Of a DNA stretch of 64,000 nt, positions 31,008 through 64,000 are shown piece after piece (position 1 is the stretch's first letter; every line of letters starts with the position of its first letter). Source of the DNA: Tubulanus polymorphus (Eukaryota; Animalia; Nemertea); assembly GCF_964204645.1 (NCBI RefSeq), contig NC_134031.1:13255807-13319806 (forward strand). The letters run 5' to 3'. Below the pieces are notes generated by a model. That model saw only the letters and a list, made by a program, of their open reading frames with translations, was not told the DNA's origin and searched no databases. The position numbers and the translations under genes were made by a program.

Positions 31008-33036
31008 TCAAGGGCCTTCAACACCGCCAGAAGCTCGAGGTAATTTATATGAAACTTCGACTCCCGGCCCGACCACACCCCCACCTTCCGCGACTCCTCG
31101 ACGTGAGCACCCCATCCGTAATGGCTCGCATCCGTATAAAGATAGACTGGAGCCTGGAGCGGGGCTAGGGATGCTCCCTGCGTCACATTCCGTGGAAGCA
31201 TCCACCATCGAAGGGCGCCCAACAGATGGGGGGGCTTGGGGGGCATAAACGCATCCCAACTGAGACTTAAGGCAGCGCACGAGGTCTTCCAAAACCTCTG
31301 CAGCGGCCGACTGTGAAGCCTGCCCAATGGAACAAATGGCTGACATGGAGCTGATCTGACCCAGCACCCTGCTCCAATACCGAGCAGAGTGGGGAACTCC
31401 CTGTAACAGAGGACGAAGAGCCTGGCACAGCTTCAGTACTCTGGCTGCGGTGGGGCGAACGCGTCCCTGTCGCAAATCGAAGTCCATACCGAGGTATGTG
31501 AACTCCTGAGACGGCGAAAGCCGGGACTTCTCTGTGTTGACTCTGAAGCCCAGGTCTTGTATCATGCCGAGGGTCAATTTGATCCCGCGGCGACACTCCA
31601 TGCGAGAGGCCCCTACTATCAGCCAATCGTCCAGGTAGACGTAAAGCCTTACCCCTCGAGATTGCAACTTTTTTTGAACGGCCCTGACTAGTTTGGTGAA
31701 GACCCAGGGTGCCGAGCTGAGCCCGAAGGGCAGAGAACAGAACTGATACACTTGCCCCTTCCACTTCACCCGGAAATATTTCCTGTAGCTGGGGTGGATA
31801 GGGACCTGGAAATAAGCATCCTTTAGATCTATGGATGCTGCCCATTGACCCGGGCGTAGCCCTTGAATGATCTCCTTTGGCGTGGTCATTTTGAACTTTT
31901 GACAATCGAGGTACTTGTTCAGCATCGACAGATCTATGACCGTTCTGAACCTCCGGACGCCTTGGGTACTGTAAAAATTCTCGAGTACACAGTTGCACAG
32001 TCAAAGAGCCTTCACTCTGGAAACCATGTCATTTAAATTCGCTCCATTTGTATAGTAATAGGCTCAGCCTACGGCTGGCCTAAAAATTATGTCTCCTATT
32101 GTACTGCTCGGAAATCGTTTACCTCGGAACAATTTACATGGTTCCAAGTATTCCGAGGTATGCAGAGTCTACTCCATAAAATTTCACGAAGCTACTCTCA
32201 ATCAAGAATTCCAAGTTTCATCTGTCAGCCATTCGATATTCTATCATTTTGCTTCAAATGTTTGATTCGCGTGACTAAGACTTTGCCTAAGACATAAATG
32301 TATTATCTTTTAGTTAAATGAAGAATAAATCATTTCTATTATTAATGAAAAGGGACTTGTAGGCTCGGGTGTTGAGGTTGGTTTCTTCTTGGTATATCTC
32401 GAGCAAAATGGCTTAAAAAATCATGGAATATCAAGATCAAGGTAGGCCCTATATCTAGCCTAAATTTCAAAAACAAAATGGGGCCTATCATCATCACATC
32501 AATCAATGTGAAACCAAGACCCAGGCTGCCGAGCTGAGCCCGAAGGGCAGAGAACGGAACTGATACACTTGCCCCTTCCACTTCACCCGGAAATATTTCC
32601 TGTAGCTGGGGTGGATAGGGACCTGGAAATAAGCATCCTTTAGATCTATGGATGCTGCCCATTGACCCGGGCGTAGCCCTTGAATGATCTCCTTTGGCGT
32701 GGTCATTTGGAACTTTTGACAATCGAGGTACTTGTTCAGCATCGACAGATCTATGACCGTTCTGAGACCTCCGGATGCCTTGGGTACTGTAAAAATTCTC
32801 GAGTACCAGCCCGGAGACCCTGGATCCTCGACCAATTCCAGTGCCCTTTTGTCCCAGAGCTCTTGAATGGCTGGATCTATGTGCAGCTCCTGGCCCTGTT
32901 TGGGCTTCATGTCCTCCGGGGTCCTGGTCAAGGGCGGCCTCTCTCTAAAAGACATGCGATACCCGGTCGAGACAACCCGAGTCGGCCAGGTATCGCCAAA
33001 AATCTCTGCAGACCAGTGGGAAGCGCAGGTTTGTAA
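31008..33036 (-). pseudogene. DIRS reverse transcriptase/RNase H, with a duplicated segment, foreign insert, frameshift and 3' truncation
   Basis: GWYSRIFTVPKASGGLRTVIDLS, IDLKDAYF, LPFGLSSAP, YLDDWL, YLG, LYTDAS..GWGA, HINYLELLAV. Frameshift at ~31325. Confidence 0.9.
31991..32514 (+). repeat. ~525-bp copy of HMCES intron sequence 26543-27068 inserted into the DIRS RT
   Basis: Near-identical from agttgcacagtcaaagagcc to caatcaatgtgaaac. It is flanked by a ~290-bp direct duplication of RT (31699-31988 / 32516-32806). Confidence 0.9.
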
Positions 33037-33060
33037 ACAGCCCCCACTGGTCCCTGGCCT

Positions 33061-35312
33061 TCAAAGCTTGTCCTTCCTCGCGAACTTCCGAAACCCCTGT
33101 CCTTTCTTGGGGCCTTTTCCCTTCCCCTTGAAGGACCTATTCCGGGCCTCGGGCTTGCCCAACTGCTGTCTAGGGGCTGAACCCCAACCAGACTTCTGTT
33201 GCAGCTTGGAGGACAAATCAACACCGGAGGTCCCCTGGTCACCCGACTTCTTCGGAATACGCCACACTCCGGGCTTACTCTGAGTTTCCCTGATCTTCTG
33301 TGCCGGGACTGCAGCCGGCCCACACCAACCGGAAAACAAGCGAGACGAATCGCCCAGCAGAGCCCTGTATAAGGCCTTCTTCACTGGGTCCGGAAGTTTG
33401 GCATCCTTTAGCAACGACTGACGCGCCACCAGAGCCAAATTAGCTTGCACCCTTATCGCTAAGGGTACCTGATGGCACAAGGACTTTGCCATAGACTGTA
33501 ACAACCTATCCAAGATCACAACCTTGTCGGCTATCTCGTTGGGGTCAGGGTTGTCTCTAGCAAGAACCTCCTTGACTGCCGACAATTCACCATGCATGGC
33601 TAATAAAGCTACGTCCTGGAAGCTATTTATCGTACACAAGTTCTCTGACAAACTCTGTAGAGCCTGAAGAGCCTGCTTAGGCATGGAGAGCGATGGTGAT
33701 TAAACGGACGGGAGCCCTATCGAGCTGGCGTCCTTGTCCAACGACGTGTGCGGTTTGAAGGAGAACCCCGGGGTTGAATAGAACCCGGTTCTGAACCCTC
33801 TTATCTTGGGGTCTACCGCCGTGAAGAACCTATTATCCTTCGCCCCTGATTCCAGGGGGGGCCAAGTCCACTCCTGAGAGGTTCTCTTTGAACCCCATAA
33901 TGTGGAATGCAAGGCCTCTTTAAATTCCTCGCGGTAGCTTGCATGAGGGGCGAGGGCCACCTCTTCTTGACCCTCCTGAGCCTCAAAGATCTTACTGGCC
34001 GCCGCCCCGTGTTGAGTGGGCTTAGGCCTCTGAGACGTACCCCCATAGTTGACCAGGACCTCCTGAATCAACTGGTTCCACGATAAGTCGGGACCCTGAT
34101 CCCCCCTGTGGAGGGAGAAGGAGAACCGGCTCGGCATAAGGGCGTTGCCGCGGGTAACCACCTTGCTGAAGTACCTTCAAGGTTCATACCCTGTACGAGC
34201 CGACTAGGGGGGTTGGATAGTGAACCCGACTGGGGCCCCTGTTCCTCATCAAAATCAGAGCCTGCTTGAAGATCGACTCGATCCTCATTACGAGAATCAG
34301 GCTCGGATTCCGAGGCAGGTACCGCTTCTACAGCTGTTACCCGGCTATCAATAGTAGAAATCTTTTCCACCAAGGCCGAAAGCTGTCGAGTACAGGTAGC
34401 CATAAATGATTTCAACTCCTCTACGCTGGGGTCATTGCGCCCTTGCGAAGGGGGAGTGGACCTGCGATGAAAGTAACGCCTGTAATCTCTCGCCAGCCTA
34501 GAAGACCTCGAGTCAGTTGACGACTCAGAATGACGTCGAGAGCGATTAAGGGGCTTACGTTTCCTAGACCGTGCCCTATGGGCATTCGTGGACCGGTTAC
34601 TGCTTGAACTCCCCGCAGAGGAATGACTCCTCCTGGGGCTAGAAGTCGAAACTGTAGCGTTATGTAGCCTGCGACCGGCACGAGTCCCTTGTGAGCCCGA
34701 CCGTGACCGGTGGTCCCGCGACCGTGGATCCCTTGAACGCGACCGGTAGTCCCGTGACCGTGAATCCCTTGAACATGACCGTGGAACCCGTGAACGCGAC
34801 CGGTAGTCCCGTGACCGTGGATCTCGTGAACGTGACCGTGGATCCCGTGACCGTGGATCCGTGGACCGGGTATCGTCCACTTTGGAGGGCCTGTCCGGGA
34901 CACAGTTCTTGGCCTGTGCCCACGGAGACCTCTGGGCACCACTGCCGCCATCAGGTAATGGCAGACAGGTGCCTAGGCGTTGGCCCTGACCAGGAGCCTG
35001 GGCAGGACCAGATGAAGCCACACCGGCCCCCGCCCCGCTGGAGGGAGGGGGTGGGTTACTGGAACCCTCTGGTTGGATACCGGTCGCTTTTGACCATGAA
35101 GCGGCTGGACGAGATCGTGCAGTTCGCTTCCACGTGGCTTCATCCCACACCGCGCAGTGAGGACACTAGGAGTGTCGACTGCAGGGCTGACCGTGGACAG
35201 CCTTGCGGCAGGCCTGACACGTATCATGCGTGTCCCATAAGCCGAACACACGGCCACAACCCTTATTCGAACACCTCTTCTGCCCATTGGGGGCAAGAGG
35301 TGAACTGGACAT
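33061..35312 (-). pseudogene. DIRS ORF1 (gag-like), broken by stops and frameshifts
   Basis: N-terminal Cys/His cluster (CSNKGC...DTHDTCQAC...C...CPHCAVW), an RS-rich repeat tract (~34700-34870) and a helical C-terminal part. It is pieced from ORFs 35166-35354, 34068-35150, 33700-34161 and 33061-33684. Confidence 0.75.
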
Positions 35313-49065: not shown

Positions 49066-50613
49066 ATGGCATTTCACGAGAAGGTAGTTATTTCGGGGAT
49101 AGGGTCTCATTATACGGCAAATGATATAAGGGTAGCTTTCCAGAGTTTCCCCGTGGTAGCTGTACACGGCTCAGCGGTAGAGGGGTTTTATGTGCTTTTT
49201 CCTTCCGGATGCGTGGCGAGCCAAGCGATGGCATTTTTTCAATTCGCAAGCGCAAAGTACCAACCTTGAGCAGGGGGAGCTATGTGTGCGGCTTTTGCAA
49301 AAAGAGAACAAGAAAAGTTTCTTTTTCGTGTTTTTAATGGGGTAGAAGATGGGGAACTACGTCAGGTGACGGTTGAGGAAAATGAAAATAAACCTGATTT
49401 TAAAAATGACGTGACTTTTAACACGGTTTATAAAGCTTTTGGAGAATTGGACGAGGAGGACCAGCAGCGTCTAGTTCATGAGCTGATTAGCAGGGGAAAG
49501 TCCTCCCAACCTTGTAACCTTCGAAGTTCTACTCCAGTTAAGCAGCCGCTTCCCGGTTTGTCTTTTAATTTACAGCCACAACGGGTCGAGAAAACTTTCG
49601 CCATTCAAGCGCCCAGGTTAGGTACTTTTTCTGGCGAGAGTGTCTCCAAAGGAGACCTTACCTTTAGGCAGTGGAAGCTTGAGGTTCAAGCGCTGCTACG
49701 AGACGAAAGTTATGGTCAGGGTTCGATTCTTCAAGCCATGCGCAGATCCCTCAGAGGGGATGCTGCGGCTGTTCTGTTTAATTGTGGTCCGAACGCGGAT
49801 GTATCCACCATTCTAGAGAGGATGGCTCTTGTTTTTGGGGAAATCTTTTCGGTAGAGGAAGGCTTAGCCCAGTTTTATATGATGTCGCAGAAGGCGGACG
49901 AGTCAGTGGCTCAGTGGTCTTGTAGGCTTGAGGATGTAGCTGCTCGTGTCCGTGGTCTGCCAGGAGGAGCGGGCGCTGTCGGTTCCGAGACACTCCGTGG
50001 TCAGTTTTGGCGTGGTCTCCGTAATGGAATGGTGCGCATGGGAACACGCTTTCTCTTTTATTCCAACGCGACCTATTACGAGATCGTAACAGAGGCTAGA
50101 AAGATTGAAGGGGAAACGGAACGGAGAGATTTCAAGTCTGTGGTGCCTCCGAAAAAACTTATGAATTCTCAAGTGTCTTCTAAAGACACACCCGGTCACT
50201 CTGGGGATCCCGCCTCCTCGTGGGAAAGGCGTTTTGATCAGGTGATGAAGCGGATGGCCGCTATCGAGGCTAAATTGGAGAACCGTCCTAGGTTGTGGGT
50301 CCCTCCTCCAAGACCTCCCTTTAGGAGTCAGGTAGGGCAGCGCTACGGAGGAGCTTCTTCGTTTGGGTTTCGTCCAAGGCTGCCCACACCTTCGCAGCGG
50401 ACGTGTTTTTCCTGTGGCGGCGTTGGGCATATCCGTCGCGTATGTCCGAGTAGAAACATGGATAACAGGCCTTTGTCAGCCGGTAACGGTAGTTCGGGTG
50501 ATAGAGATGGTCTCTCTAATAGAGATGACAGTCTCTCTGGTAATAACAGCTCGTATGACCCAAAAGAGAAAGTGTCCGTTTCGAGGGGCGGACGCGTGAC
50601 ACGTCGGTATTAG
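49066..50613 (+). CDS. Gypsy gag (PNMA/Arc-like capsid + CCHC knuckle), with an in-frame stop at 49267-49269
   Basis: PRLGTFSG...FRQWKLEV...MRRSLRGDA...Q...ESVAQWSCRLE...QFWRGL; CFSCGGVGHIRRVC. ORFs 48976-49269 and 49282-50613 share a frame. Confidence 0.85.
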
Positions 50614-50639
50614 GGAACAGCCCTCAAACGAATATATCT

Positions 50640-51071
50640 TATCGCGTCGTTGGTAGAGCCAATCTCTCGACAGTTTCATTGGATGGGGTACCTTGTTATG
50701 CTTTAATTGACAGCGGGTCACAAGTGTCCACGGTTTCGAGGAAGTTTGTCGAGGTTTACATGCCCGAAGTCCCTGTGCAGCCAGTAGCTGATTTTCTTGA
50801 GGTAACGACCGCGGGTGGTGCGGCCCTGCCATATTCCGGTTATGTCGTTGCTCGGTTGCAAGCAGCCGATTTGGATATGGAAATCCCTATGCTTGTTGTT
50901 GAGAGTACCGACTACCATGAGAAGGTACCTGCTTTGATTGGCACCAATGTGCTGGACCGGGTCAAGGATTTTTCGACCTTGTCGGCGGCCTGGGCTGCAG
51001 CGGACCCTATACGTTGTAACAACATTTCCGAATCGGTAAAATTGACTAAGGCAGTCTCCGTGAGTAATTAG
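50640..51071 (+). CDS. Gypsy aspartic protease (start of pol, truncated)
   Basis: ALIDSGSQVSTVS...LPYSGYV...PALIGTNVL, in the -1 frame relative to gag. Confidence 0.85.
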   Translation, partial: YRVVGRANLSTVSLDGVPCYALIDSGSQVSTVSRKFVEVYMPEVPVQPVADFLEVTTAGGAALPYSGYVVARLQAADLDMEIPMLVVESTDYHEKVPALIGTNVLDRVKDFSTLSAAWAAADPIRCNNISESVKLTKAVSVSN

Positions 51072-51111
51072 GAAAGTAGGCTTTCAGATCAGAGGACGAG
51101 AGGACGAGACA

Positions 51112-51150
51112 CCACTCATCACCACAAGTAATTTTTTTTCCTTATAAATG
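51112..51150 (+). promoter_or_regulatory. Shared 39-bp promoter-like motif of plus-strand Polinton genes (second copy 51457-51495; variant 62047-62095)
   Basis: CCACTCATCACCACAAGTAATTT(T/G)TTTTCCTTATAAATG ends exactly at the start codon. Confidence 0.7.
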
Positions 51151-51354
51151 GAAGAGAATAAGACAGAACAAATTGATGTTAATGAAAATCAATATCATTG
51201 TCCATATTGTAAAAAATACATTGATAAATCAAATAAACCTTACATGGAAAATGTTAGAAATTATATTGATTCACTAGAAATAAAAGATACAATTGAAATT
51301 TTAGAAATATTACGCAGTAAAATTGTGACACACATAAACAGTGAGTGCGCGTAA
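51148..51354 (+). CDS. Small hypothetical protein with CxxC (Polinton)
   Basis: TAAATG start after a shared 39-bp motif; YHCPYCKKY. Confidence 0.65.
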   Translation: MEENKTEQIDVNENQYHCPYCKKYIDKSNKPYMENVRNYIDSLEIKDTIEILEILRSKIVTHINSECA

Positions 51355-51492
51355 CAACAGCTGCGCGTGTGTTAACTGTACCTGGATAAATAGATGCTGT
51401 GAGGCTTGGGTGAGAACGGTTAATAGCGTGTTTGTTATATACAGGGGAAGTAATCCCCACTCATCACCACAAGTAATTTGTTTTCCTTATAA

Positions 51493-51819
51493 ATGGGAGA
51501 TAGAAAAGCATTCTTAGCAACAATAAATAACAGAATAAAACCAGCAAAAAAACAATTTGAAATAAAAAAGTTAGTTGATGTTACAAAAGAAATTGAACAT
51601 AAAATATTGAAATTAGAAAAGATAAAAACTAAATATGGAGAGAAAGTATCAGCTAATTTAAGCTACTGTAATGTTAGTACATCACGAGAATTTAAAGTGT
51701 TTTTACCCGATAAATGGGTTTCATTGAGTACAGAGGAATTGAAAGATTTAGTAGGATTTAAAATAATATATCATGGGAAAAATGAAGACGGTCATCATGA
51801 TTTAGAAATTGTTGATTGA
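51493..51819 (+). CDS. Hypothetical Polinton protein, possibly an OB-fold ssDNA-binding protein
   Basis: TAAATG start after the same 39-bp motif; TKYGEKV...FKVFLP beta-rich pattern. The fold call is inference. Confidence 0.65.
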   Translation: MGDRKAFLATINNRIKPAKKQFEIKKLVDVTKEIEHKILKLEKIKTKYGEKVSANLSYCNVSTSREFKVFLPDKWVSLSTEELKDLVGFKIIYHGKNEDGHHDLEIVD

Positions 51820-52924
51820 ATAGAAAATAAAAATAATGAATATCTAGAATCCAAAATGACCTTAGTCGTTTTATAAACAACTACAATCATACAGTACATC
51901 TGTTACATGTTATTATAAGAGAGTGCTTCATTTGAATATTGATCGATCAAACAGGTGTTGCACAACGTTGTTGTTATATTGGATAGCTAGCAGTTTTATA
52001 ATAAGCACGTAGTACATACAACACACACAAACCAGTTAGCCGGCATTGAACTACCACGTTTTCATTGGTTTCTGAAAGCGAGGTTTATTTAAATTAGCTC
52101 GGCCGTGACGACAGGAGGATAGTCATCATTCTCTCGTGATTAAAAGGAATATTTCAATGTTTTTACGGTAAGTTTTAGCAAAATTGCCCTATCGTCGACC
52201 TATAGAGTTTTCAGGGGATAAGCATCCCATTATTGAAAGGCGCCACGGGACGCTTATCCCCCGTCATTTCTACTTACACCCCCGGAGACCCACGTCAACC
52301 GGGATCTCCTTCAATGATTGGTAGAAATCACATTATATTAAAGGCGCCTAATGTAATTTCTACCAATCTCGAAATTCGAAACCGAAGGAGAAACCCGGAG
52401 AGTGGACGAAGGTGCATTTTCAAAATGCCTCTGCTGGCCAGAGCTACTCCAGTGGTTGAATGAATTGCCTTATATACTTAGCTAAAACACCTAAGTAAAT
52501 GTTGTTGGTGCTAAAAAAATATGTGAAATTTGAAATTATAAATTATTCCGAATGAAAAGAATGTAAGAATGAAAACTGATCAATGAATTATGTATTTTTA
52601 ACTTAATTATGATATAATTTTTAATCAAATTAGTAATCAATTACTATGTTAATTGATTAACAAATTCAAATTCAAATATTCATTTTAGCATACTCAGTGC
52701 TGCCATCTTTCAATTTAAGAAAAAACTAATAATAAGAAACGACTGTAATACAATATTCAAATAAAAACAAAATAAATTAATAAAAATAATGAATATCTAG
52801 AATCCGAAATGACTTATCTGGACAATTTAATTGCTCCACATAGATAGACAAAAGTAGTGAGATGGTGCCGTACGGCTCCCACATGGTGATATTCAATTAT
52901 TTTTTTTGCTTTTTTTCTAAAATA

Positions 52925-53224
52925 TTAATCCATTTTTTTTATTATCAATTTTGGAATTTCAGAAGTACTTTCATTTTTGATAGCAGTTGGTTCAGAATTA
53001 CTAATATCATGAATTTTATTTGATTTCTTATACCAATTACACCCAATCAAAATGAATACAATTACAAATCCAACTCTAAAATATAGATATTTATCAAATA
53101 TTCTATTATCAGAAGGAGTAGAAATAACAATATTTTCACCATTTTTATTAACATTTTTATTACTTATTTTTTCTTTTACAGCTTTTTTATATTCTTGTGA
53201 TTTAATTCTAATTGCCGAGACCAT
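52925..53224 (-). CDS. Hypothetical protein with a transmembrane segment (possibly the C-terminal part of the upstream gene)
   Basis: VGFVIVFILIGC; in frame directly after TGA 53225-53227. Confidence 0.6.
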   Translation of the reverse strand: MVSAIRIKSQEYKKAVKEKISNKNVNKNGENIVISTPSDNRIFDKYLYFRVGFVIVFILIGCNWYKKSNKIHDISNSEPTAIKNESTSEIPKLIIKKMD

Positions 53225-53831
53225 TCAATTTGTTTCTGAGTTCTCGGTTTTTTCTTCACAGTTAATTCCTTCACTTCTTTCACCTCGCTCATTTATTATA
53301 GAAATATTTTTACTTTCAATATTTGAAAATGTTATAACCCCGGTTGATAATAATGTCATAAATCCACCTAATTGAAATGATAAATATCCAATCCATTTAT
53401 TTAATTCAGTCATAACTAAATAGTCATTTTTTAAATCGGAATATAATCTATTTTCATTTTCAATTGGTAGTATATAATTACATAATTTACTATAACCTTT
53501 TACTACATTTTCTGATATCGCGTCATTAATTTTAGCTGTTCTCGCGGCTTCATAAATCTTAAATAATCTAATAATTTCAACTGATTTCATTGTATCTAAT
53601 TCATTATAAGTTAAATTTTTATCAACAAATTTTTTACATTTTCCAGATGCTATTAATATTTCTAATTGATGTTTACAATAAAGATAATATTCATAATTAT
53701 TATTTGTTGTAACATTATTTAAAGCACCATCATCTGGAGTTAATTTTGTTTCTGTTATTCCTAAATCATCTAAAGTTTTTTCAATTGGAACATCACCATT
53801 TTTAGATTTTATTTTGTTTTTCACCTCCCAT
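53225..53831 (-). CDS. Hypothetical Polinton protein; true start probably the ATG at 53831, followed by a 1-nt frameshift
   Basis: ~200-aa ORF with a hydrophobic C-terminal helix. The T7-GTTATA-TAAATG motif sits out of frame at 53829-53847. Confidence 0.7.
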
Positions 53832-53864
53832 TTATATAACAAAAAAATTAATTGTGTGATGTTG

Positions 53865-54113
53865 CAACTAGAATTTAACTAGAATGTAACTAGAATTCAA
53901 CTAGATTAACAAGCTAGTTGAAATATTGTTGTTTTTGTTTATTTCTAGTTAAATCTAGTTGATTTTTGTTTCAACTACTAACAACTAGAATTCAACTAGA
54001 ATGTAACTAGAATTAAACTAGATTAACAAGCTAGTTAAAATATTGTTAAATCTATTTGATTTTTGTTACAAATACCAATAACTAGAATTCAACGAGATTA
54101 ACAAACTAATTGA
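53865..54113. repeat. Intergenic array of ~11-bp AACTAGAAT motifs in direct and inverted orientation
   Basis: caactagaatttaactagaatgtaactagaattcaactagattaacaagctagtt occurs twice, with inverted ttctagttaaatctagttg between the copies. Confidence 0.85.
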
Positions 54114-54115
54114 AT

Positions 54116-54724
54116 TTAAATAAATTCATATTTAAATGGGTGTTGTAATCTAAATAGTAATTTTGATCTTTTAATATTTTTCAACTTATCCATATATTCA
54201 TTATGTAAATCATGTGGAATAATATCATTTTCCTCAAGTGCATTTTTCATCGATTTTCTATCTTTATTGTAGAATAAAACTAGAAATCTAATGTTTTCTC
54301 TAAAGTCTTTAACAATTGAATTATATTTTTGATTTAAAACCCAAGTTGTTATCCCAAAATGTCTCCCAGAGAAAGCTAAATAGCATAACTCACTTTCTCT
54401 AACTTTTGAATCATGTAGATTAGCACAATCATCTATAATGAATAATGTATTTGATCCTTTATAAATATCAATTGCTATTTTAATACAATTATCTAAATTT
54501 TCTTTTACTGTTTTAGGATCTAATATAATAAATTTATTATTCCTAGTAATATTTCTATCATAAGTTTGATTAAATTCATATGTTGGGCAAAATAATACTA
54601 TATTATCAAAATAGTTTTCATAAACAGGTTCTAATAAATTTAATATAAAATAAGTTTTTCCACAATTTGTTACACCAGAAATTAACATATTATGAGGCTC
54701 AAATATGAATAATTCCTTATTCAT
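54116..54724 (-). CDS. A32/FtsK-like genome-packaging ATPase
   Basis: Walker A ISGVTNCGKT, Walker B LFIIDD, arginine-finger region SGRHFGITTWVLNQ. Confidence 0.92.
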   Translation of the reverse strand: MNKELFIFEPHNMLISGVTNCGKTYFILNLLEPVYENYFDNIVLFCPTYEFNQTYDRNITRNNKFIILDPKTVKENLDNCIKIAIDIYKGSNTLFIIDDCANLHDSKVRESELCYLAFSGRHFGITTWVLNQKYNSIVKDFRENIRFLVLFYNKDRKSMKNALEENDIIPHDLHNEYMDKLKNIKRSKLLFRLQHPFKYEFI

Positions 54725-55624
54725 TTATATATTTTTAATTTTACTTGATAATATCCATTCATTGAATTTATCTGGCCATCCAACCCATTTTACCAAAGAA
54801 TATTTTTTTCTTTTAATAGTTTTTGTTTTTAATACTTTTTCAATTTTATATTCTTGTTCTAGATTTTCAGTAGTTAAACTTAATTCTTCTTCGTAAAAGT
54901 AGCCATCAACTTCTTCACAATCTAAATCTTCTAATTTATAGACATATACATTTATATCATATCCCTCTATCAATTTTGGTAAAACATCAATCCATTTAAA
55001 AGTATTATTTGCTGTAAAATATTTCCACATTCTTGTTCTTAATGTTCTATTAAATCGTTCAACAACTGCTGCTTTTTTATCCGATTTTGTTGAAAAATAT
55101 TCAATATTATGATTATCTAAGAGTTCATGAACAAGTGAATTATCAAACTCTTTTCCATCATCAAATTGTATTTTTTCTGGTTTTAGTTTATCATCCGAAA
55201 GAAATTTTCTTAAAACATTTGATGTTTGTACAGCATCTTTTCTATAAAGTGGGAAACTCCATACATAACGACTAAAAATATCAATTATATTCAATAACCA
55301 CCAATAATCATCATTATCTTTCTTAACATTTTTCATATCAATTAAATCTCCTTGCCACTGTTGATCTACATAACTTACCATAGTTTAACGAGTTTTATAT
55401 TTTCTAACAATTTTTTTATGTGTTGTGTATGTTGGTTGTTCTAACATAAATTCATTTATATCTTTATATTTAACTAAATTTTGTGGGGTTATCTTATCTA
55501 ATTTATCTTGTTTTACTTTACGCCATATATTTTTAGTAGAAGAATAAGCAACCGAACTCTCAGGGTTGTAATATAAATTTCTTAAATATTGTTCTTTAGT
55601 ATTAGGAGTTTTTTTACCACCCAT
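54725..55624 (-). pseudogene. Retroviral-like (rve) integrase with C-terminal chromodomain; nonsense codon at 55385-55387 and an apparent internal deletion
   Basis: YYNP N-terminus; QWQGDLIDM, IDIFSRY, QFDDGKEF, VVERFNRTL (DDE); YKIEKVLK...LVKWVGWPDKFNEWI. The usual segment after ...LIEGY appears to be missing. Confidence 0.9.
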
Positions 55625-55654
55625 TTATATATCCTTAATTTTAACTTTATATTT

Positions 55655-56903
55655 CTAATATTGAATACTATCTAATTGTGAATTTACAATATTTAATTGC
55701 GCGTCAGATATAATATAAATATGCATTTTAAAATTTAAGCTTCCTTTTTTCTTTTTCATGAATAATTGTATTCCATCTTTAGTGTTCTGTAGTTTTTTCC
55801 CAGAACCATGTAATGAATTATCCTCTGTTGTTCTAAAATCTAACCATAATGCATATTTATTGCCGGTATAATAATCAATTTGATTAATATTACAATTTTC
55901 AAATGATTTTACTTTTTCATTCATAAAATGTTTTCTAATTTCTGGCCATTGATCAATCATTCTCATTCCTTGGCAAAATATTTTATTTGCTATTCCTTCG
56001 ATAGTTATTTCTACTTTTGTTATTTCAGGATTATAATAATTATCTACCTTTATTGCACCATTAGAATATGTTGCAATGGTAAAAAATATTAATATACCTT
56101 TAATAGATCTTCTTGGGAAGTTAATATTCTCATTAATTATTTCATCATTTGCATTAATAGTTACGGTTTTAAATTTATCAATATAATCATATAATAATGA
56201 AAATCCTTGATTGTATTGAGTTTGAATTATACTTGAAATATTTTCATCAGTTACTGTATCATATTCTAAACATATATTCGATAATTTATAACTCATATCT
56301 TTAACAACGCTAGATAATACAATTTCATTTACAGGAGCAAATGTTATCTCAAATATAATATCTTCTTGAATTGCGTATTTATATAAAGGTGCATTATTAT
56401 TTATCAATTCAAAATCTAATGGAATTTTATATTTGCTTCCATAAATCTTTTTAATCAAATTATCTGTGGCACGAGTTACTATTACGTCATTAGCTCCTGA
56501 TCTTAATTTATTATGGTTTTCCGATTGGATGCCTTGAAATATCATATTATTTCTATTTTCTTTAGTTAACCATAAATCTTTATAATGCATAAATGAATTA
56601 TAATCATCTAATGAGAAAACTGTTTCCGGACCAATCTTTATAGTTAATTTTTTAATCAAATATCTTCCAACATTATCAACAACATAATTGTTATCATATA
56701 CCAGTTACTTTTATATTGGCTGATAAATAAATACTATTTGGAACATAAAAAGTATTTTGTGTTAACCTAGGAATTCTAACATATAAAGTTTCATCGGGAT
56801 TAATATTTGAAGGGTTATGAGTAATTATATGATATGATCTTTCTGCTTTAATAGCATTAGATATTCTAGAAATCTTAGAAGGACTTATATAACTCCCACT
56901 CAT
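55655..56903 (-). pseudogene. Major capsid protein (double jelly-roll), frameshifted at ~56695
   Basis: ITHNPSNINPDETLYVRIPRL...then NVGRYLIKKL...YKIPLDF...YKLSNICLEYD...PRRSIKGIL...YYNPEITKVEITIEG...YALWLDFRT...HGSG, matching adintovirus/Polinton hexon-type motifs. Confidence 0.85.
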
Positions 56904-56927
56904 TTATTAAACAAAAAAATTAATTAT

Positions 56928-58412
56928 TTATTTTTTATTATTTTTTTCTTGATATCTTTTTGATATCATATTTACTAACCCAAAAAGAATAGCACTTACA
57001 ACTGTGATTAAAAATAAAATAATATGTTCAGCAGCAAAGTTAAGAATATTACCTGCAGATTTCAATATAAAACCAACAATTGATGCAATAACTCCAGGTA
57101 AAGCTGCAGCAGATTTTTTAGATAGTTCCCATAAATATTTTGCTAATTTCTTTAAACCATCCTTAACTTTATCTTGTATAGAATTATTGCCTGGAGGTTT
57201 ATCTGGTTTATTGGGAGTGGGAGTAGGAGTAGATTTTAAAGCATTTGATATAGCTAAACCTATTGTTGTAAATACCATAGTTACAGATGTTAGAATTGAA
57301 AGAATTGTTATTCCTTCTAACTTAAATAATAATTTTATTCTGTCTTTTAATGATATTTTAGAATTTGGTTTTATCAACAAATCTTTAAAAATAACTTTTC
57401 ATCTATTAATATTATAATCATATGATTTTAATAATGTATCTCTTTCTTCTTTTTGTAATTCTTTGTTATATTTTAAATCATCTATTTCTTTTTCTAAACG
57501 TAATTCTTTTTGTCTATATTCTATTTCATCAATTACTTGATGATCTAAATCAGACTTTAATTGTTCTATTTCTTTATTTTTATCAGTTAATTCTTTTTCT
57601 AAAGTTCTAATTTTTTGATCTCTTATACTTTTATTATGTGCAATTTTATCAGCTTCATTTCTTATACTAATAATTTCTCTAATTGCTTCATCAGAAAATA
57701 TATTTAAATCTTCTAATTGTTGATCTGTTGCATCAAGTAATCCATTCGGTAAAAGTTTTTCAGTTTGAACTTCGTTTGATTTAATTTTACTAGTTTTGGA
57801 AGTTTTATTCTGTTCAGAAGTTGTTTCTATTTCCGATTTCTTTTTGATTATTTTAAATAAGTCATCAATTCTTTGTTTAAATACTCTTATATTATTATCT
57901 CTTTCTTCTTGTGTTACATTTTCTATTTCATTACTATTTCTTATTCTCTTAATTCTTTCTGTTTCTAAATTTTTCAAAGTTGATTCCGCTAATATTTTAC
58001 TTTGTCTTGTCCTTTGATTAGTGATATCAATATAATAATCACCATCCAAATGATAATAATATTTACCATCTAAAAACTTTAACTCTTGTGCTAAAATTCT
58101 GGTGTCTCTAAAATTTATATTATATTCAGATCTTTCAAATATATGTTGTAATCTAAGCGCTTGGTTTATATTTTCTAAATCTTGTCTTTCTAAACCTGGG
58201 TCTAAATTTTCAGGATTTATTCTCGATCTAGTTCTTCTATCAAATTCATCTGTTGATGGGGCTTTAGTATCAGGTCTTGATAAATTAGAATTATATGCCG
58301 TTTTATTATCATTACTGAAACTTGTTTCACTAAAATCAGGTTGTTGTTCATCACTTATACCGGGTTCATCTAAAGGATCCAATGGAATATCTTCTCCACC
58401 TTCTACATCCAT
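56928..58412 (-). pseudogene. Coiled-coil protein with C-terminal hydrophobic helices (conserved adintovirus-type membrane-active protein); in-frame stop at 57399-57401
   Basis: ORFs 57399-58412 and 56928-57380 are in frame; LKDRIKLLFKLEGITILSILT...LPGVIASIVGFIL. Confidence 0.75.
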
Positions 58413-58428
58413 TTATATAATAAAAAAA

Positions 58429-59757
58429 TTAAAATTTAAAATATAATATTCCTCCGATTACAATTCCTATACAAGTTATAGCTAATTTAGTATTTTCATG
58501 GGATTTATTATCATCATTTAGTTTAATTATATCATGTTGAATAATATCAGTTCTAATATCACCGTGTGGGTGCCGTACGGCACCATTTTCTGATGTATTA
58601 TAATCTTTTATTTTGGAATCATTATCCAATTTAATATTCTTAGTTTTAGTTTCTGTTGATTGAATATGTTTTTTATTTTTTTCACCTTCCATTAATTTTG
58701 GAGCAGTAATAATCTTTTTATTTATATCATTCAATCCAAATGAATTATTTATTGTTGCAGTTTTAATTAGATTATTATAACCAATTATATTTCCCATCTT
58801 CAATACTAAATCATTAGAAATAATTAATAGATTAGGGCCTATACAATAATTAAGTCTTACATGTGATTTATCTAAATAATTTTGATATCTTATAATGTTT
58901 TCTGGAATCGATCTATTTTTATCATTATGAATTGAATCTTCAAATAAAACTTTAAACTGTTTCTGCGCATCGAATGAAGTGTTATCATTTCCAATTATTG
59001 GGGATCTTGTTTCAACTTGAGCGCCTAAAATACATATCAAATAAATTCTAATAGATTGATTTATTCTTTGTATACCTGATTTTGTAAAACCTTCACCATT
59101 TTCTAAAATGAAATTAACCCAACCATTATTATTATCAATTCTATAATTATGATAAGCTGAAATTCTATGCATATAATCAATTCTTTTTATTTCAAACTCT
59201 TCACCAACACCTTGCAATTTACCATGCGCTCTGAAATCGGAATTAATATTTATATTAAATTCATTACATATTTTATAAAACTTAGATATATTAATATTAT
59301 TATCCAATTCTTTTAAATATTTAGACCCGGGTAAAGGACATTCTAATTCATTTAATATTATTCTGATTTGAAAATATGTGTGAAATCTAAATATTGTGTG
59401 AATTAATTTTAAATCAGAATACTTTAAATTTTTATCTAAGTTATTTAAATGATCATTCCAACTTATTCCACATCCTGTTGTTGCACAATAAACAGCAAAA
59501 TCTAATTGGTTGTGCCAATATTTCATATTAGATTCTACTTTATATATATGATATTCATCTCGAGTAAAAGTAACTTCATATGTATTAAATATATTTTCCA
59601 TTTTAGAAATAAAAAACTGTGATTCAGTAACATAAATTTCTAAATTAGTTAATGAATCTAAAACTACATTTTTATATGTAATATTTTTCTTAAAATCTAT
59701 TGCCGGAATATTATATTTAATTGATTTATTATATTGGAAAGCTTTTGGAAACCCCAT
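58429..59757 (-). CDS. Conserved hypothetical Polinton protein with a C-terminal membrane anchor
   Basis: 442 aa; WHNQLDFAVYCATTGCGIS, FRFHTYFQIRIIL, RINQSIRIYLICILGAQ; C-terminal LAITCIGIVIGGILYF. Confidence 0.8.
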   Translation of the reverse strand: MGFPKAFQYNKSIKYNIPAIDFKKNITYKNVVLDSLTNLEIYVTESQFFISKMENIFNTYEVTFTRDEYHIYKVESNMKYWHNQLDFAVYCATTGCGISWNDHLNNLDKNLKYSDLKLIHTIFRFHTYFQIRIILNELECPLPGSKYLKELDNNINISKFYKICNEFNININSDFRAHGKLQGVGEEFEIKRIDYMHRISAYHNYRIDNNNGWVNFILENGEGFTKSGIQRINQSIRIYLICILGAQVETRSPIIGNDNTSFDAQKQFKVLFEDSIHNDKNRSIPENIIRYQNYLDKSHVRLNYCIGPNLLIISNDLVLKMGNIIGYNNLIKTATINNSFGLNDINKKIITAPKLMEGEKNKKHIQSTETKTKNIKLDNDSKIKDYNTSENGAVRHPHGDIRTDIIQHDIIKLNDDNKSHENTKLAITCIGIVIGGILYFKF

Positions 59758-59773
59758 TTATATAACTAAAAAA

Positions 59774-60208
59774 TTAATAATTAACTAATTCTTTTAATAA
59801 TTTATCTTGTTCTTCAACTGTTATATGGCCATTTAAACTTATTATATAATCTAGTGTATTCTTTAATTTATTAATTTCTTTTATATTAGTTTTGATTTTT
59901 TCTTTATTACTTTTTATATTTAATTTTGAACTTATACCAGTTAAAACACTTGAACTTAATCCTAATACACCAATTGATATAGCTAAAGGTGTTAATGGGC
60001 TGAATATTGCTAGAAATGTTATTACAGAACTAATTGTAACCGAACCACTTATAATCAAATAATATATAATTTTACTTTTTAAATATTTTTTCTTTTTTAT
60101 CTTTAAGTCACTTTCAAATTCTAATATTTGTTTTTCTAAATATGTTTTTAATTTAGTTTTATTTATATCATGAGGAATAATATCAATATTATCAACTTTA
60201 TCTTCCAT
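59774..60208 (-). CDS. Two-TM membrane protein flanked by coiled coils
   Basis: Hydrophobic hairpin IIYYLIISGSVTISSVITFLAIF...LAISIGVLGLSSSVLTGIS; TAAATG start. Confidence 0.75.
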   Translation of the reverse strand: MEDKVDNIDIIPHDINKTKLKTYLEKQILEFESDLKIKKKKYLKSKIIYYLIISGSVTISSVITFLAIFSPLTPLAISIGVLGLSSSVLTGISSKLNIKSNKEKIKTNIKEINKLKNTLDYIISLNGHITVEEQDKLLKELVNY

Positions 60209-60227
60209 TTATTTAGAAAAAAAATTA

Positions 60228-60650
60228 CTAATTAGTAAATTTATACGCTACAAATATAACAATAACAGTTCCGCCTAAAATCCAAATTATTTCATATTTC
60301 TGTTGTTCTTTACTCGGGGTATAATAATCTGATAATTTAGGTTTGTATAGATGTAATTTTTCTTTATTTGTTACTGCGTTATATAAACTCATTGCATCAT
60401 CAACTGATTGAAAATCTCTATGTGAAATCTTCTGATCATATCATTCTTTATTGATGTAATCCATATAGTTTTGTCTCTTTTCTCTATATTCTTCTGCAGC
60501 TTTATTATATTTCTCTAACGCTAAGTTATGTCTTCTTTGTTCTCCTAATGAACTATTTTTATCAATATGTTTAAATAAATATCCACCACCAGTAAATGCC
60601 AAAGCGTTAACAATTGCCGATCCTATAATAGTTATAATTGCAGAAGCCAT
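60228..60650 (-). pseudogene. Small membrane protein with N- and C-terminal hydrophobic segments; premature TGA at 60441-60443
   Basis: MASAIITIIGSAIVNALAFTGG...EQRRHNLALE. The frame continues after the stop (YDQK...PKLSDYYTPSKEQQKYEIIWILGGTVIVIFVAYKF) to TAG 60228-60230. Confidence 0.75.
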
Positions 60651-60666
60651 TTATTTAGTAAAAAAA

Positions 60667-60895
60667 TTATGCATTTATATGGGAGGAATATTTTTTTTTT
60701 TCCAAATAATCAATAGTTAAATTAGATAAAGTAACTGCTAATGTTAATTTTAAAATATCATTTATATCAAATCTATCAACATTAACACTTCCCATTTTAA
60801 ATACTTTTTTTTAATACCATTGAATAACCAACAGTTCCAACTGATAGTAATGCTCCATTATATAATCCAGTTATTATCCACTTATTATCACTCAT
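60667..60895 (-). pseudogene. Small hydrophobic protein missed by the ORF track; frameshift in an A-run
   Basis: TAAATG at 60893-60898; MSDNKWIITGLYNGALLSVGTVGYSMVLKK / VFKMGSVNVDRFDINDILKLTLAVTLSNLTIDYLEKK. Confidence 0.65.
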
Positions 60896-60898
60896 TTA

Positions 60899-61252
60899 TT
60901 AATCAAAAAAATTACTATCTTCAAAATATTTAGTTATCTTAGTGATGATTATTTCAACATTTATTTTATTACTAGTTTCATTTGTATATATTTCAATTAT
61001 TATTTTTTTAATATCATCGATGATAAAATCTTCATCTAATTCATAAAATCTTAAAGATTCCTTAATTAAATTAGTAATCTTTTCTACATTTAATGTTTCT
61101 TTATCTATTGTTGTTTCATACTCAAATGTTGTTTCATTAGAAAATGCAATATTTTTGATATGTGTAATTACATCATTCATGTTAAATTTCATTTCTTTCT
61201 CACGTTTGAAATCAAATCCAAAACATATACTCGGTCCAACAGTTATATTCAT
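60899..61252 (-). CDS. Hypothetical protein
   Basis: 117-aa ORF with a T-tract/TAAATG start, packed between its neighbours. Confidence 0.65.
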   Translation of the reverse strand: MNITVGPSICFGFDFKREKEMKFNMNDVITHIKNIAFSNETTFEYETTIDKETLNVEKITNLIKESLRFYELDEDFIIDDIKKIIIEIYTNETSNKINVEIIITKITKYFEDSNFFD

Positions 61253-61268
61253 TTATATAGGTGAAAAA

Positions 61269-62024
61269 TTACTCTTTACATCTTATAACTAATTCATAAA
61301 TTACAGGAAAGTTATTCAAATCAATTAAATAACCATTGTGATTTCTTATTTCTAATTTAAAATTATTGAAATGCGGAATACAAGGTTTAAAATCACATTC
61401 AGCTAAATTATAATTTATTTGCGTTCCAAATTGTTTAACATTCTTCAATGGTAAAATATTTAATAAACCAGAATTACAAATTGTATCTTTAGTTGCTTCA
61501 AATGTTTTTGTAGGATCAATTAAATTGCAATAAATATAAAAATGTGTAAAAGGTATTATATTTGTATAAGTATCAATATTTGAATAATGTCTATCCGGAA
61601 GAATTCCAAACAGTTTAGCTAAAGGTTTTCTTACTAGAAATCTATGTTGTTCATTAGTTAACTTTATTCTTATTTTATTCGAACTATCACTTTTGATGAA
61701 TTTAATTTCAAATCGAGCAGCTGAGCCCATTTTTAAACGAGCTCTTTTATTAATATCTTGCGCTAATGTTTCTAAATTATATAATCCTGGTTTTAGATAG
61801 AGATGAAACCATTTATTCAAATTTCTATCATAAATTTTAAAAGCTAAATGATCAAGACTTTTATTCGATATATTATGAAAAGAATTACATAAACTTATAT
61901 TAACTAATTTTAAATCTACACAATTCTCGAATTCTCTATCTAATTGTACTAGTAAATTATGTGATTTATAATTTGTAAGTTTTCTAGAATCAACAAATAT
62001 TCTGTATTCTTTTAATTCTACCAT
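61269..62024 (-). CDS. Minor capsid protein (penton, single jelly-roll)
   Basis: IFVDS...LVNISLCNSFHNI...LKPGLYNLETL...FYIYCNLID...LEIRNHNGYLIDLNNFPVIYELVI. Confidence 0.8.
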   Translation of the reverse strand: MVELKEYRIFVDSRKLTNYKSHNLLVQLDREFENCVDLKLVNISLCNSFHNISNKSLDHLAFKIYDRNLNKWFHLYLKPGLYNLETLAQDINKRARLKMGSAARFEIKFIKSDSSNKIRIKLTNEQHRFLVRKPLAKLFGILPDRHYSNIDTYTNIIPFTHFYIYCNLIDPTKTFEATKDTICNSGLLNILPLKNVKQFGTQINYNLAECDFKPCIPHFNNFKLEIRNHNGYLIDLNNFPVIYELVIRCKE

Positions 62025-62092
62025 TATTTATAACATAAAAAAATTACCGCTCATCACTAAAAATTAATCTTAATAAAATTTTTCCTTAATAA

Positions 62093-63418
62093 ATGGATGA
62101 GAAGATACCATGTGAAATTTGTGGTGAACTTCTAAGAAAAAGTAATATGGCTCGACATATGAAAAAACATGATGAAAATTATAAACCCCCTAAAATAAAC
62201 TGCCCAAAATGTAATAAATTATTCTCAAGAAATTATGTTAAAAAACATTCAGAGAAGTGTAGAATTAATGGCGCAACGGCTAATGTTGATAGTAACGAAA
62301 GTAATAGTAATTCTGCTGAAGTTGAACCTGAAGTTATTTGGAAAATACCTTTCTTATTCTATGATAAGGATAATATAAAATATCATTTCTGTGAGCCTTG
62401 TCGAATGAAATATAACCCTGAAAATATAGAAGATTGGGAGAATCATCAATTTCGTAAAGTACATATAGATAAAATTTCTAATAAATTTGAAACTGAATTT
62501 AATGAAAGAAAAAATAAAATATTAGAAAAAATAAAATATGAGAAAACGTTACCAGATAATGAAGAAACAGTTGAAAAGTTAGAAAAACAATATAATGAAT
62601 TAACAAGAAAAACATATTATTGTAAATATTGTAAATTGATTATTACAACAAGTAATTCAAATCTACATAATAGAACAATAAAACATAAAGAAAACGTAAG
62701 AAAATACCAAGAGCTTAATGAAGATCTATTACCAATAAATTATAAACAAAAATGCCCACAATGTATTTATGCGACCTTAAGACAAGAGGGTACTGTGTTA
62801 TTTTGTAATGAATGTGGATGGCAAAAGAATTTATGGGGTGAAGAAAAAACTAGAAATTTTCTCATAGATCCAAAATTAAATTATCTAGAAGAAATTTTTG
62901 AAATATTTTCTATGGAAGATCATACACCAGAATATATGCAATGGCTTGAAAAAATGAAAATAATAGAAAATGAAAATGGTGAAATAACTAAAAAAGATAT
63001 TATAAAAACAATTATTCCACCAACATTTAACACAAAACAAAAGAAAATGTATTTATATTTATTATTTAACGATTATTATGAAAAACCTAAATTAACAGAA
63101 GAAGATATGGAAAATATAAAAAAAATATTTAAACAAATATTAATGTATCATTTGGAAAATAGAATAACAGATTCAATAAATTATGAATTCTTTTTAAATA
63201 AGATTGTAAATTATTTAAACATAGATATTATAATTCCATTTGATGAATTAACAAACAAAAAGAAACAAAGAGAGCGAGATGAAATGTGGAACAATATAAC
63301 ACGTTATTTAAATGAGAAAAATGAAATAGAAGAACCTAAACAAATTATACAAGAACAATTAAATGAAAAAGAAGAAACCAATAGTGATTTCGAGTTTGAT
63401 GATATTGATCCATTTTAA
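62093..63418 (+). CDS. Poxvirus A2/VLTF3-like late transcription factor with N-terminal zinc fingers
   Basis: Four C2H2/C2HC-like fingers, a CPQC...CNECG ribbon, then NFLIDPKLNYL...LTEEDMENIKKIFKQI...EN...SINYEFFLNKI...W, which resembles vaccinia A2. Confidence 0.75.
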   Translation: MDEKIPCEICGELLRKSNMARHMKKHDENYKPPKINCPKCNKLFSRNYVKKHSEKCRINGATANVDSNESNSNSAEVEPEVIWKIPFLFYDKDNIKYHFCEPCRMKYNPENIEDWENHQFRKVHIDKISNKFETEFNERKNKILEKIKYEKTLPDNEETVEKLEKQYNELTRKTYYCKYCKLIITTSNSNLHNRTIKHKENVRKYQELNEDLLPINYKQKCPQCIYATLRQEGTVLFCNECGWQKNLWGEEKTRNFLIDPKLNYLEEIFEIFSMEDHTPEYMQWLEKMKIIENENGEITKKDIIKTIIPPTFNTKQKKMYLYLLFNDYYEKPKLTEEDMENIKKIFKQILMYHLENRITDSINYEFFLNKIVNYLNIDIIIPFDELTNKKKQRERDEMWNNITRYLNEKNEIEEPKQIIQEQLNEKEETNSDFEFDDIDPF

Positions 63419-63999
63419 TAACCATAAGGTAATGTTTTTATACCATCATCTGAAATATGTCTTTTATCATCAAATGGATTTAAACTAGTTTTTTCAACTT
63501 CATTAATGTACATCTCGTGATCTTCTGATCTTAAACAATTCATTTTGTGTTTCATTACAATTGAGCTATATAAACACTTTATATAATCTTGAAATTCTAT
63601 ATGTTTATCAACCACATGTTTTGTTATTCCTTTTAACTTTTTAGCTTCATGATCTTTTGTTCTGTAACTATACATTTTACTTCTTATCCCAACAAATTCA
63701 ATCATTTCATCACCTCCTAATTCATCTTTAAACTTACCAGGAATCTTTTTATTATCATTGCTAAATAGTTCATGATCTTTGGGATAATTGCTAAAATCAA
63801 AATAATGTTTTAATGTTTTTAAGTCTTTTGTTATGTCATTTGTCTTGATTTTTAGTATGTAGGCGTCAGTATTGAAGCAAATTAATGGAAATCCACAGTT
63901 AAATGTACCATCTTCAGTTGATAAATCATAAACATAATCTGTTGGGTTATATATTTCAAATAAATCTTTAACTTCTTCAGTTAAATCTTTTTCTGTGTG
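63415..63999 (-). CDS. polB: Protein-primed family B DNA polymerase, C-terminal part (frame open to the window edge)
   Basis: TDAYIL...FDFSNYPKDHELFS..NKKIPGKFKDE...EFVGIRSKMYSY...KKLKGI...SLNPFDDKR...TLPYG. Confidence 0.93.
   Translation of the reverse strand, partial: HTEKDLTEEVKDLFEIYNPTDYVYDLSTEDGTFNCGFPLICFNTDAYILKIKTNDITKDLKTLKHYFDFSNYPKDHELFSNDNKKIPGKFKDELGGDEMIEFVGIRSKMYSYRTKDHEAKKLKGITKHVVDKHIEFQDYIKCLYSSIVMKHKMNCLRSEDHEMYINEVEKTSLNPFDDKRHISDDGIKTLPYGY
63871..63999 (-). other. C-terminal splicing region of a putative intein in pPolB motif C
   Basis: ...EVKDLFEIYNPTDYVYDLSTEDGTFNCGFPLICFN | TDA: intein block F (YVYDL), block G ending in Asn, and +1 Thr. Confidence 0.78.
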
Positions 64000-64000
64000 G

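Follow-up and report, generated by a model that had tools for sequence, protein, structure and literature searches.

The question of whether the Polintons of animals live as viruses in their own right or as virophages has been raised (PMC8097293, PMC11296320), and the idea that animal Mavericks behave as virophages has already been voiced (PMC8097293). Polinton-like viruses (PLVs) linked to entomopoxviruses have been reported, as a preliminary description of the DNA studied here had stated (PMC11296320); promoters and TAAAT are not mentioned in the part of that paper covered. In vaccinia virus, the late promoter is described as TAAAT followed by a G, overlapping the start codon and preceded by several Ts, of which the one located ten bases upstream is conserved (PMC11980589), and the addition of poly(A) leaders by slippage has been described (PMC6211774, PMC7163114). 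A literature search, with supplements and most subscription papers outside its scope, found no report of TAAAT promoters in Polintons. We have analysed a stretch of 64,000 nucleotides from the nemertean Tubulanus polymorphus (NC_134031.1, positions 13,255,807 to 13,319,806; hereafter, the window). Positions 51091-64000 of the window are the left part of an AT-rich Maverick-Polinton, in which nearly every gene starts behind a sequence that resembles a poxvirus late promoter. The element is a decayed copy, and we consider it probable that its lineage is transcribed in trans, the RNA polymerase being that of a pox-type cytoplasmic DNA virus present in the same infection.

The element was assigned to the Maverick-Polintons because it encodes an A32-like ATPase, an rve integrase and the C-terminal end of a DNA polymerase of family B (PolB), and because its capsid protein has a double jelly-roll relative; the features that mark Polinton membership, i.e., protein-primed PolB, rve integrase, double jelly-roll major capsid protein and A32-like packaging ATPase, are therefore present (Table 1). 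Promoters were counted at 15 gene starts defined by homology, and the other 469 ATGs of the element served for comparison. TAA is found directly before ATG at 14 of the 15 gene starts and at 24 of the 469 other ATGs (Fisher p 4e-16), and the 15th gene start reads TAAATA followed by ATG. A T-tract and AA are located at a fixed distance upstream of the TAAATG starts: the combination of AA at -18/-17, T at -14 and ATAA directly before ATG, a motif defined post hoc, occurs at 14 of 15 starts and at 3 of 469 other ATGs. With automatic calling of open reading frames (ORFs), by which the downstream pieces of broken genes are also counted, 11 of 17 starts are directly preceded by TAA. In a set of 64 starts (15 from the window and 49, pre-selected for TAA, from 10 related loci), TAAAT is preceded by T at a distance of 9, 10 and 11 nt in 91, 78 and 77% of cases, respectively. 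The genes for the capsid protein, ATPase, integrase and VLTF3-like protein, as well as a copy of the PolB start, are among those preceded by TAAATG. As can be seen, poxvirus-type late promoters do stand before nearly all genes, as the preliminary description had claimed, and at the sequence level the motif matches the late architecture of a large virus (vaccinia), which is a virophage-like feature.

The same arrangement is found in relatives of the element. After exclusion of 12 of 65 loci, each under 2,300 bases, TAA directly preceded ATG in 55 of 63 automatically called ORFs from 12 related metagenomic loci (capsids 52-84% identical to P0001, an intact relative of the window capsid protein; GC 0.20-0.44). 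By comparison, the 41 control loci gave 23 of 472 (10 of 110 for the 11 that are AT-rich), and four sister loci from the same capsid family gave 0 of 18. Position -3 is T in the clade, whereas it is A in 57% of control-locus starts. In a quick, midpoint-rooted capsid tree, the window and the 12 motif-bearing loci fall into one clade of 29 rows (Shimodaira-Hasegawa-like approximate likelihood-ratio support 97), with the four motif-less loci outside. Thus, the putative TAAATG promoter is a mark of one clade. The argument from promoters is stronger than the preliminary description could make it, because the architecture is bipartite and fixed, T stands at -3, the motif belongs to one capsid clade and it is kept up to 44% GC.

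One could suppose that the motif is a by-product of compact packing in AT-rich DNA, arising from stop/start overlaps or poly(A) signals. Such overlaps exist: in 4 of 15 cases the upstream gene ends with the TAA at positions -19 to -17, and in 1 of 15 the TAA at -3 serves as a stop codon (the TAA of the ATPase TAAATG doubles as the integrase stop), and six of the 14 sites with TAA directly before ATG read AATAAATG. The other eight sites, however, read TATAAATG, and the motif is also found before genes without an upstream neighbour and, in two cases, within coding sequence. Since it is also retained in loci with a GC of 0.36-0.44 and is rare in the AT-rich controls, we regard this explanation as very improbable.

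A different possibility is that the element belongs to an autonomous nuclear virus whose zinc-finger/VLTF3 protein redirects host RNA polymerase II (Pol II) to the T-tract/TAAAT box, with no helper required. The fusion of the VLTF3 domain to extra zinc fingers speaks for this, as does the presence of VLTF3 both in Mriyaviruses, which are small, and in some PLV clusters (about 30%). Some nuclear nucleocytoplasmic large DNA viruses (NCLDVs) likewise keep VLTF3 in the absence of an RNA polymerase. However, this box also stands before the VLTF3 gene and before the PolB-start copy, and no separate early promoter class is visible even on them, which would leave nothing to start the cascade. A TATA element at -40 to -20 was found at 8 of the 64 starts (11.7 in shuffled sequences) and TAAGA/ATAAAC at 11 (11.9 in shuffled sequences). 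No TATA-binding protein was matched in the scan of window proteins, and the spacing of the box is that of vaccinia. Mimivirus early and late, Cafeteria roenbergensis virus (CroV) late, baculovirus late, pox-early and Pol II TATA motifs were not enriched over shuffles at the 64 starts, the baculovirus and pox-early patterns being used as generally known. Because the promoter overlaps the ATG, puts T at -3 and precedes every gene, including that of the transcription factor, a pox-type polymerase is favoured, and redirection of Pol II appears unlikely.

An A2/VLTF3-like factor, also announced in the preliminary description, is indeed encoded. While the whole 441-aa zinc-finger protein gives no Pox_VLTF3 match, its residues 217-406 match this family (PF04947) with E 5.8e-6 and 26.6 bits at a cut-off of 25. 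Both a zinc ribbon and the VLTF3 helical domain are recognised on the excised domain, whose top match in the ESM Atlas is a VLTF3 cluster (0.96), followed by Preplasmiviricota clusters. The domain is covered by 3 of 28 phmmer matches. No relatives were present in the viral contigs or PDB sequences searched, and a word-index search with the VLTF3 region yielded 0 of 499 candidates. A single-sequence model of the domain was poor (predicted local distance difference test score, pLDDT, 48), and its best viral match, cowpox VLTF3 (E 0.07), was not counted. VLTF3 has already been reported in coral polintoviruses (PMC11131425, section 8) and in PLVs (bioRxiv 2026.06.19.733378). Since it is known in polintoviruses, Mriyaviruses and PLVs, VLTF3 alone does not imply a cytoplasmic helper and would be weak evidence for one.

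The PolB intein is also real: a tail of 43 residues located just before TDA matches, at 69% identity, the end of the LAGLIDADG intein carried by the PolB relative P0152, in which PF03175 was found. Among 115 parsable PolB relatives (121 examined), 11 from several lineages have an intein at this site, and homing-endonuclease insertions in Polinton PolBs have already been noted (PMC11161782). The earlier label 'NCLDV-style' is not supported as a specific origin, the Atlas neighbours of the P0152 intein being mixed, and the intein, too, would be weak evidence of a helper. Thus, of the three signals that had been taken to indicate a cytoplasmic large-DNA-virus partner, the promoter stands, while VLTF3 and the intein do not discriminate.

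No RNA polymerase gene is visible in the window, as stated previously: none of the 20 window proteins scanned gave a profile match to RNA polymerase, and neither RNA polymerase nor capping enzyme was matched among the window proteins or the scanned subset of relatives' ORFs. For the closest relative, the clusters of capsid, VLTF3 and PolB all include a member from a 16,883-base contig, which suggests, from equal lengths only, that a close relative is an element of 17-18 kb with little room for an RNA polymerase. Given that none is seen in the element and that a close relative probably measures about 17-18 kb, a co-infecting virus would supply the polymerase, as CroV does for mavirus (PMC8547959). 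It could instead be encoded in the right part of the element, whose end lies outside the window, or by a sister cytoplasmic linear element, as in yeast pGKL, whose own RNA polymerase is related to that of poxviruses. The initiator in pGKL promoters is TAAAN, and poly(A) leaders are present (PMC6211774); cytoplasmic linear plasmids, in turn, have Polintons as their source (PMC11161782). However, ATNTGA, the box located upstream in pGKL, was found at 2 of the 64 starts (8.0 in shuffled sequences). This, the lack of polymerase matches among the proteins scanned and the probable size of the close relative make an own or sister polymerase improbable.

Under transcription in trans by a pox-type virus, initiation by the late machinery of the helper would take place at the AAA of TAAAT, slippage would provide a poly(A) leader, and the VLTF3-like protein of the element would bias this machinery towards element promoters. 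The genome would be copied by protein-primed PolB and packaged with the capsid protein and ATPase, and insertion of copies into host DNA would be the task of the integrase, as in mavirus. A wider proposal, which we put forward tentatively, is that a whole clade of animal Polintons switched from host Pol II to poxvirus late transcription, its members living as integrating virophages of pox-like viruses that are as yet undescribed and infect invertebrates other than insects. In such elements, A2/VLTF3 would steer the helper polymerase, and TAAATG in host genomes could be read as a fossil record of the range of this unseen poxvirus.

Several observations weigh against transcription by a pox-type helper. 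A helper virus was not seen, no search of this host for one having been made. About half of the sites also contain TATA, the late initiator of African swine fever virus, so that the type of helper is not pinned down. AATAAA is not avoided on the coding strand in the clade (195 seen, 195.6 expected), though most controls are alike; in codon-shuffle tests, avoidance of AATAAA or TTTTTNT did not distinguish clade and controls. VLTF3 occurs in Polintons, PLVs and Mriyaviruses for which no pox helper has been shown. The closest PolBs (82%) lack an intein, and in the Atlas the intein of P0152 ranks nearest to phage, unclassified-virus and bacterial clusters together with one from NCLDVs, which is not an NCLDV-specific pattern. 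Several loci of the clade are near-duplicates and represent fewer independent lineages, and the sister control amounts to about three. Finally, 5 of 14 starts in one control locus, L049, are preceded by TAA. A scan of viral contigs with the promoter pattern retrieved 71 scattered stretches, 11 of which open a frame of at least 60 codons, with no sign of one helper.

L049 itself is a protease-bearing Polinton in which A-rich ATAATAA(A) leaders stand at variable spacing before most starts, which is a different motif.

A pox-late-type promoter common to a whole clade makes the question of Polinton autonomy a simple reporter test. TAAATG may be used as a sequence marker to tell Polintons that are likely helper-dependent from ordinary ones, and the clade that carries it predicts pox-like viruses in hosts with no described ones.

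The features of the element and its left flank are listed in Table 1.

Table 1. Features of the Polinton and its left flank (window coordinates; L, related locus; P, related protein).
Position	Strand	Feature	Basis
49282..51090	+	Gypsy-like gag (PNMA-like, zinc knuckle) and protease-like stretch, flank	profile match; protease by eye
51091..51147	.	probable left terminus, opens with short tandem AG-initiated repeat	repeat and GC drop
51148..51354	+	68-aa shortened copy of PolB N-terminus, TAAATG promoter	blastp
51493..51819	+	108-aa conserved ORF, TAAATG	74% to L001 ORF
52925..53292	-	conserved gene, frameshift-broken, TAAATG at 53292	comparison with relatives
53225..53831	-	conserved gene, frameshift near start, TAAATG at 53831	comparison with relatives
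53865..54121	.	non-coding array, 11-nt units containing CTAG	similar arrays in L002, L012
54116..54724	-	A32-like packaging ATPase, open, TAAATG	Pox_A32 (PF04665) E 1.4e-12
54725..55624	-	rve integrase with chromodomain, TAAATG at 55624	rve (PF00665) E 1.4e-10
55655..56903	-	double jelly-roll major capsid protein gene, frameshift-broken, TAAATG at 56903	78% to intact P0001
56928..58412	-	gene for a protein with coiled coil and hydrophobic tail, in-frame stop, TAAATG at 58412	
58429..59757	-	442-aa conserved protein, open, TAAATG	66% to L001 ORF; no Pfam/PHROG match
59774..60208	-	SLATT-like protein with two membrane helices, open, TAAATG	SLATT_fungal E 0.0037, below cut-off
60228..60650	-	small conserved gene of membrane type, in-frame stop, TAAATG	comparison with relatives
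60667..60895	-	conserved small gene, frameshift-broken, TAAATG	comparison with relatives
60899..61252	-	117-aa ORF, TAAATG	
61269..62024	-	251-aa ORF, TAAATA before ATG	43% to L001 ORF
62093..63418	+	zinc-finger protein, C-terminal A2/VLTF3-like domain, open, TAAATG	homologues P0121, P0122, P0131
63415..63870	-	protein-primed family-B DNA polymerase, C-terminal extein	72-81% to closest intein-less Polinton PolBs
63871..63999	-	intein C-terminal 43 residues in the PolB motif DTD(S/A), after its first D; runs off window	

Comparison with related loci L001 and L002 revealed that, of the 15 genes whose start can be recognised, 7 are broken, a decay that the preliminary description had missed. Frameshifts account for four (the capsid gene and three small ones), and in-frame stops for the other three (the integrase gene, which also has an internal deletion, and the genes starting at 58412 and 60650). 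The in-frame stops argue for true decay rather than homopolymer errors alone. Judged by its reading frames, the window copy is decayed and incapable of particle formation by itself. It had been suggested that the integrated copy stays silent until a helper arrives and could act in antiviral defence; since 7 of 15 genes, those for capsid and integrase included, are broken, the copy in the window cannot itself serve as a defensive provirophage.

The window capsid protein, a member of a 415-aa family, has no Pfam match itself. A model of P0001 (pLDDT 90.7) is a double jelly-roll that matches the capsids of iridovirus, Paramecium bursaria chlorella virus 1 (PBCV-1) and mavirus. The mavirus capsid ranks below those of iridovirus and PBCV-1, at about 10% identity, so that a virophage-type capsid was not recognised with this model. 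Sequence relatives of the capsid protein include animal-genome proteins, and none were found in the viral contigs, genome contigs or PDB sequences searched; named eukaryotic relatives of capsid and PolB come from bivalves and a hydrozoan. The 251-aa ORF, which has no significant Pfam, PDB or PHROG match, is a possible minor capsid protein by size and position only. An adenain-like cysteine protease motif, present in 14 control loci, was found neither in the window nor in L001. This protease is typical of Polinton group 1 and variable in group 2 (bioRxiv 10.64898/2026.06.19.733378, section 5), and the lack of the motif in the window and L001 hints that the element may belong to group 2.

The ORF at 51148 aligns with the N-termini of four close PolBs (48-68% over 28-33 aa, blastp E 1e-8 to 4e-5) and is likely a terminal-repeat copy of the PolB start. 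Its position at the left end fits an inverted repeat, which suggests that the terminal repeat may carry the PolB promoter and start. Because this copy stands behind TAAATG, the promoter of PolB itself is probably the same. The ORFs at 51148 and 51493 have in common a 44-nt promoter cassette (95%).

Non-coding arrays of 11-nt units containing CTAG or TAGT occur in three clade members, namely in the window, in L002 (3717-3825) and in L012 (6074-6260), and are a possible origin or packaging signal. A short GC-richer repeat, distinct in each clade member, recurs in intergenic DNA and in frame within genes: in the window at 52862-52893 and 58555-58586, in L002 at 2341-2459 and 5708-5826, in L012 at 2185-3071 and in L015 at 2277-3246. 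The window copy at 58569 is a perfect palindrome. L001 encodes a deoxynucleoside kinase (10340-10981, E 1.7e-31) behind the clade promoter, and P0154 is apparently a PolB piece with a domain of this kind. Free-standing HNH-like endonuclease ORFs with TAAATG are present in L002 (5568-6083), L006 (1717-2448) and L007 (3289-4023), the assignment being based on a Pfam match below the cut-off for L002 and made by eye for L006 and L007. Polinton PolB contigs (L043-L065) are found inside many bacterial metagenome-assembled genomes and are presumably mis-binned eukaryotic or viral DNA.

The GC content is 31-33% at 51-53 kb and 22-26% at 53-64 kb, compared with about 38% in host DNA, and the genes align colinearly with their relatives with no intron-sized gaps. 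The element is thus AT-rich and intronless, as had been stated. As pointers to a helper, both properties were rejected: control Polintons devoid of the motif are AT-rich as well, and Polintons in general are intronless. On the left, the protease-like stretch of the Gypsy-like element, assigned by eye, stops directly before the start of the Polinton. No Rfam match was found in 50500-64000. Among ten listed sequencing runs, four, all from one study, contain part of the stretch, with no RNA run listed among them. Elsewhere, the window contains a long interspersed nuclear element with an open endonuclease/reverse-transcriptase frame of 970 codons (3078-7566) and, at about 31000-35300, a GC-rich retroelement with a duplicated reverse-transcriptase segment, recognised by eye as resembling DIRS.

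With Maverick-Polintons/adintoviruses (PMC8502044; bioRxiv 10.64898/2026.06.19.733378), the element shares protein-primed PolB, rve integrase, A32 ATPase, double jelly-roll capsid, a SLATT-like gene and integration; it differs from them in the clade-wide TAAATG with T-tract, the lack of a cysteine protease motif in the window and the patchy PolB intein. Yeast pGKL elements also have protein-primed PolB and a TAAAN initiator but, as far as described in the part of PMC6211774 covered, encode their own RNA polymerase, use ATNTGA as upstream box and have neither capsid nor integrase. The entomopoxvirus-associated PLVs are Polinton-like and have been proposed to be hyperparasites of poxviruses in invertebrates, as may be the case here. 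Compared by description only, in the part of PMC11296320 covered, they differ in having been co-sequenced with pox occlusion bodies, in having no rve integrase and in carrying a protease. The promoter resembles the vaccinia late/intermediate type in TAAAT followed by G over the start codon and in a T-rich stretch about 10 nt upstream; known here from sequence alone, it departs from the late class in a fixed AA 14-15 nt upstream of TAAAT, which brings it nearer to the intermediate class. Mavirus and endogenous mavirus-like (EMALE) virophages differ from the element in host (here an animal), in capsid (here of the Polinton family and about 10% identical to that of mavirus) and in using TCTA, which is not enriched at the 64 starts, in place of TAAATG. 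Like the element, they combine rve integrase with protein-primed PolB, are AT-rich and have one late-type promoter motif that matches that of a large virus (PMC8547959).

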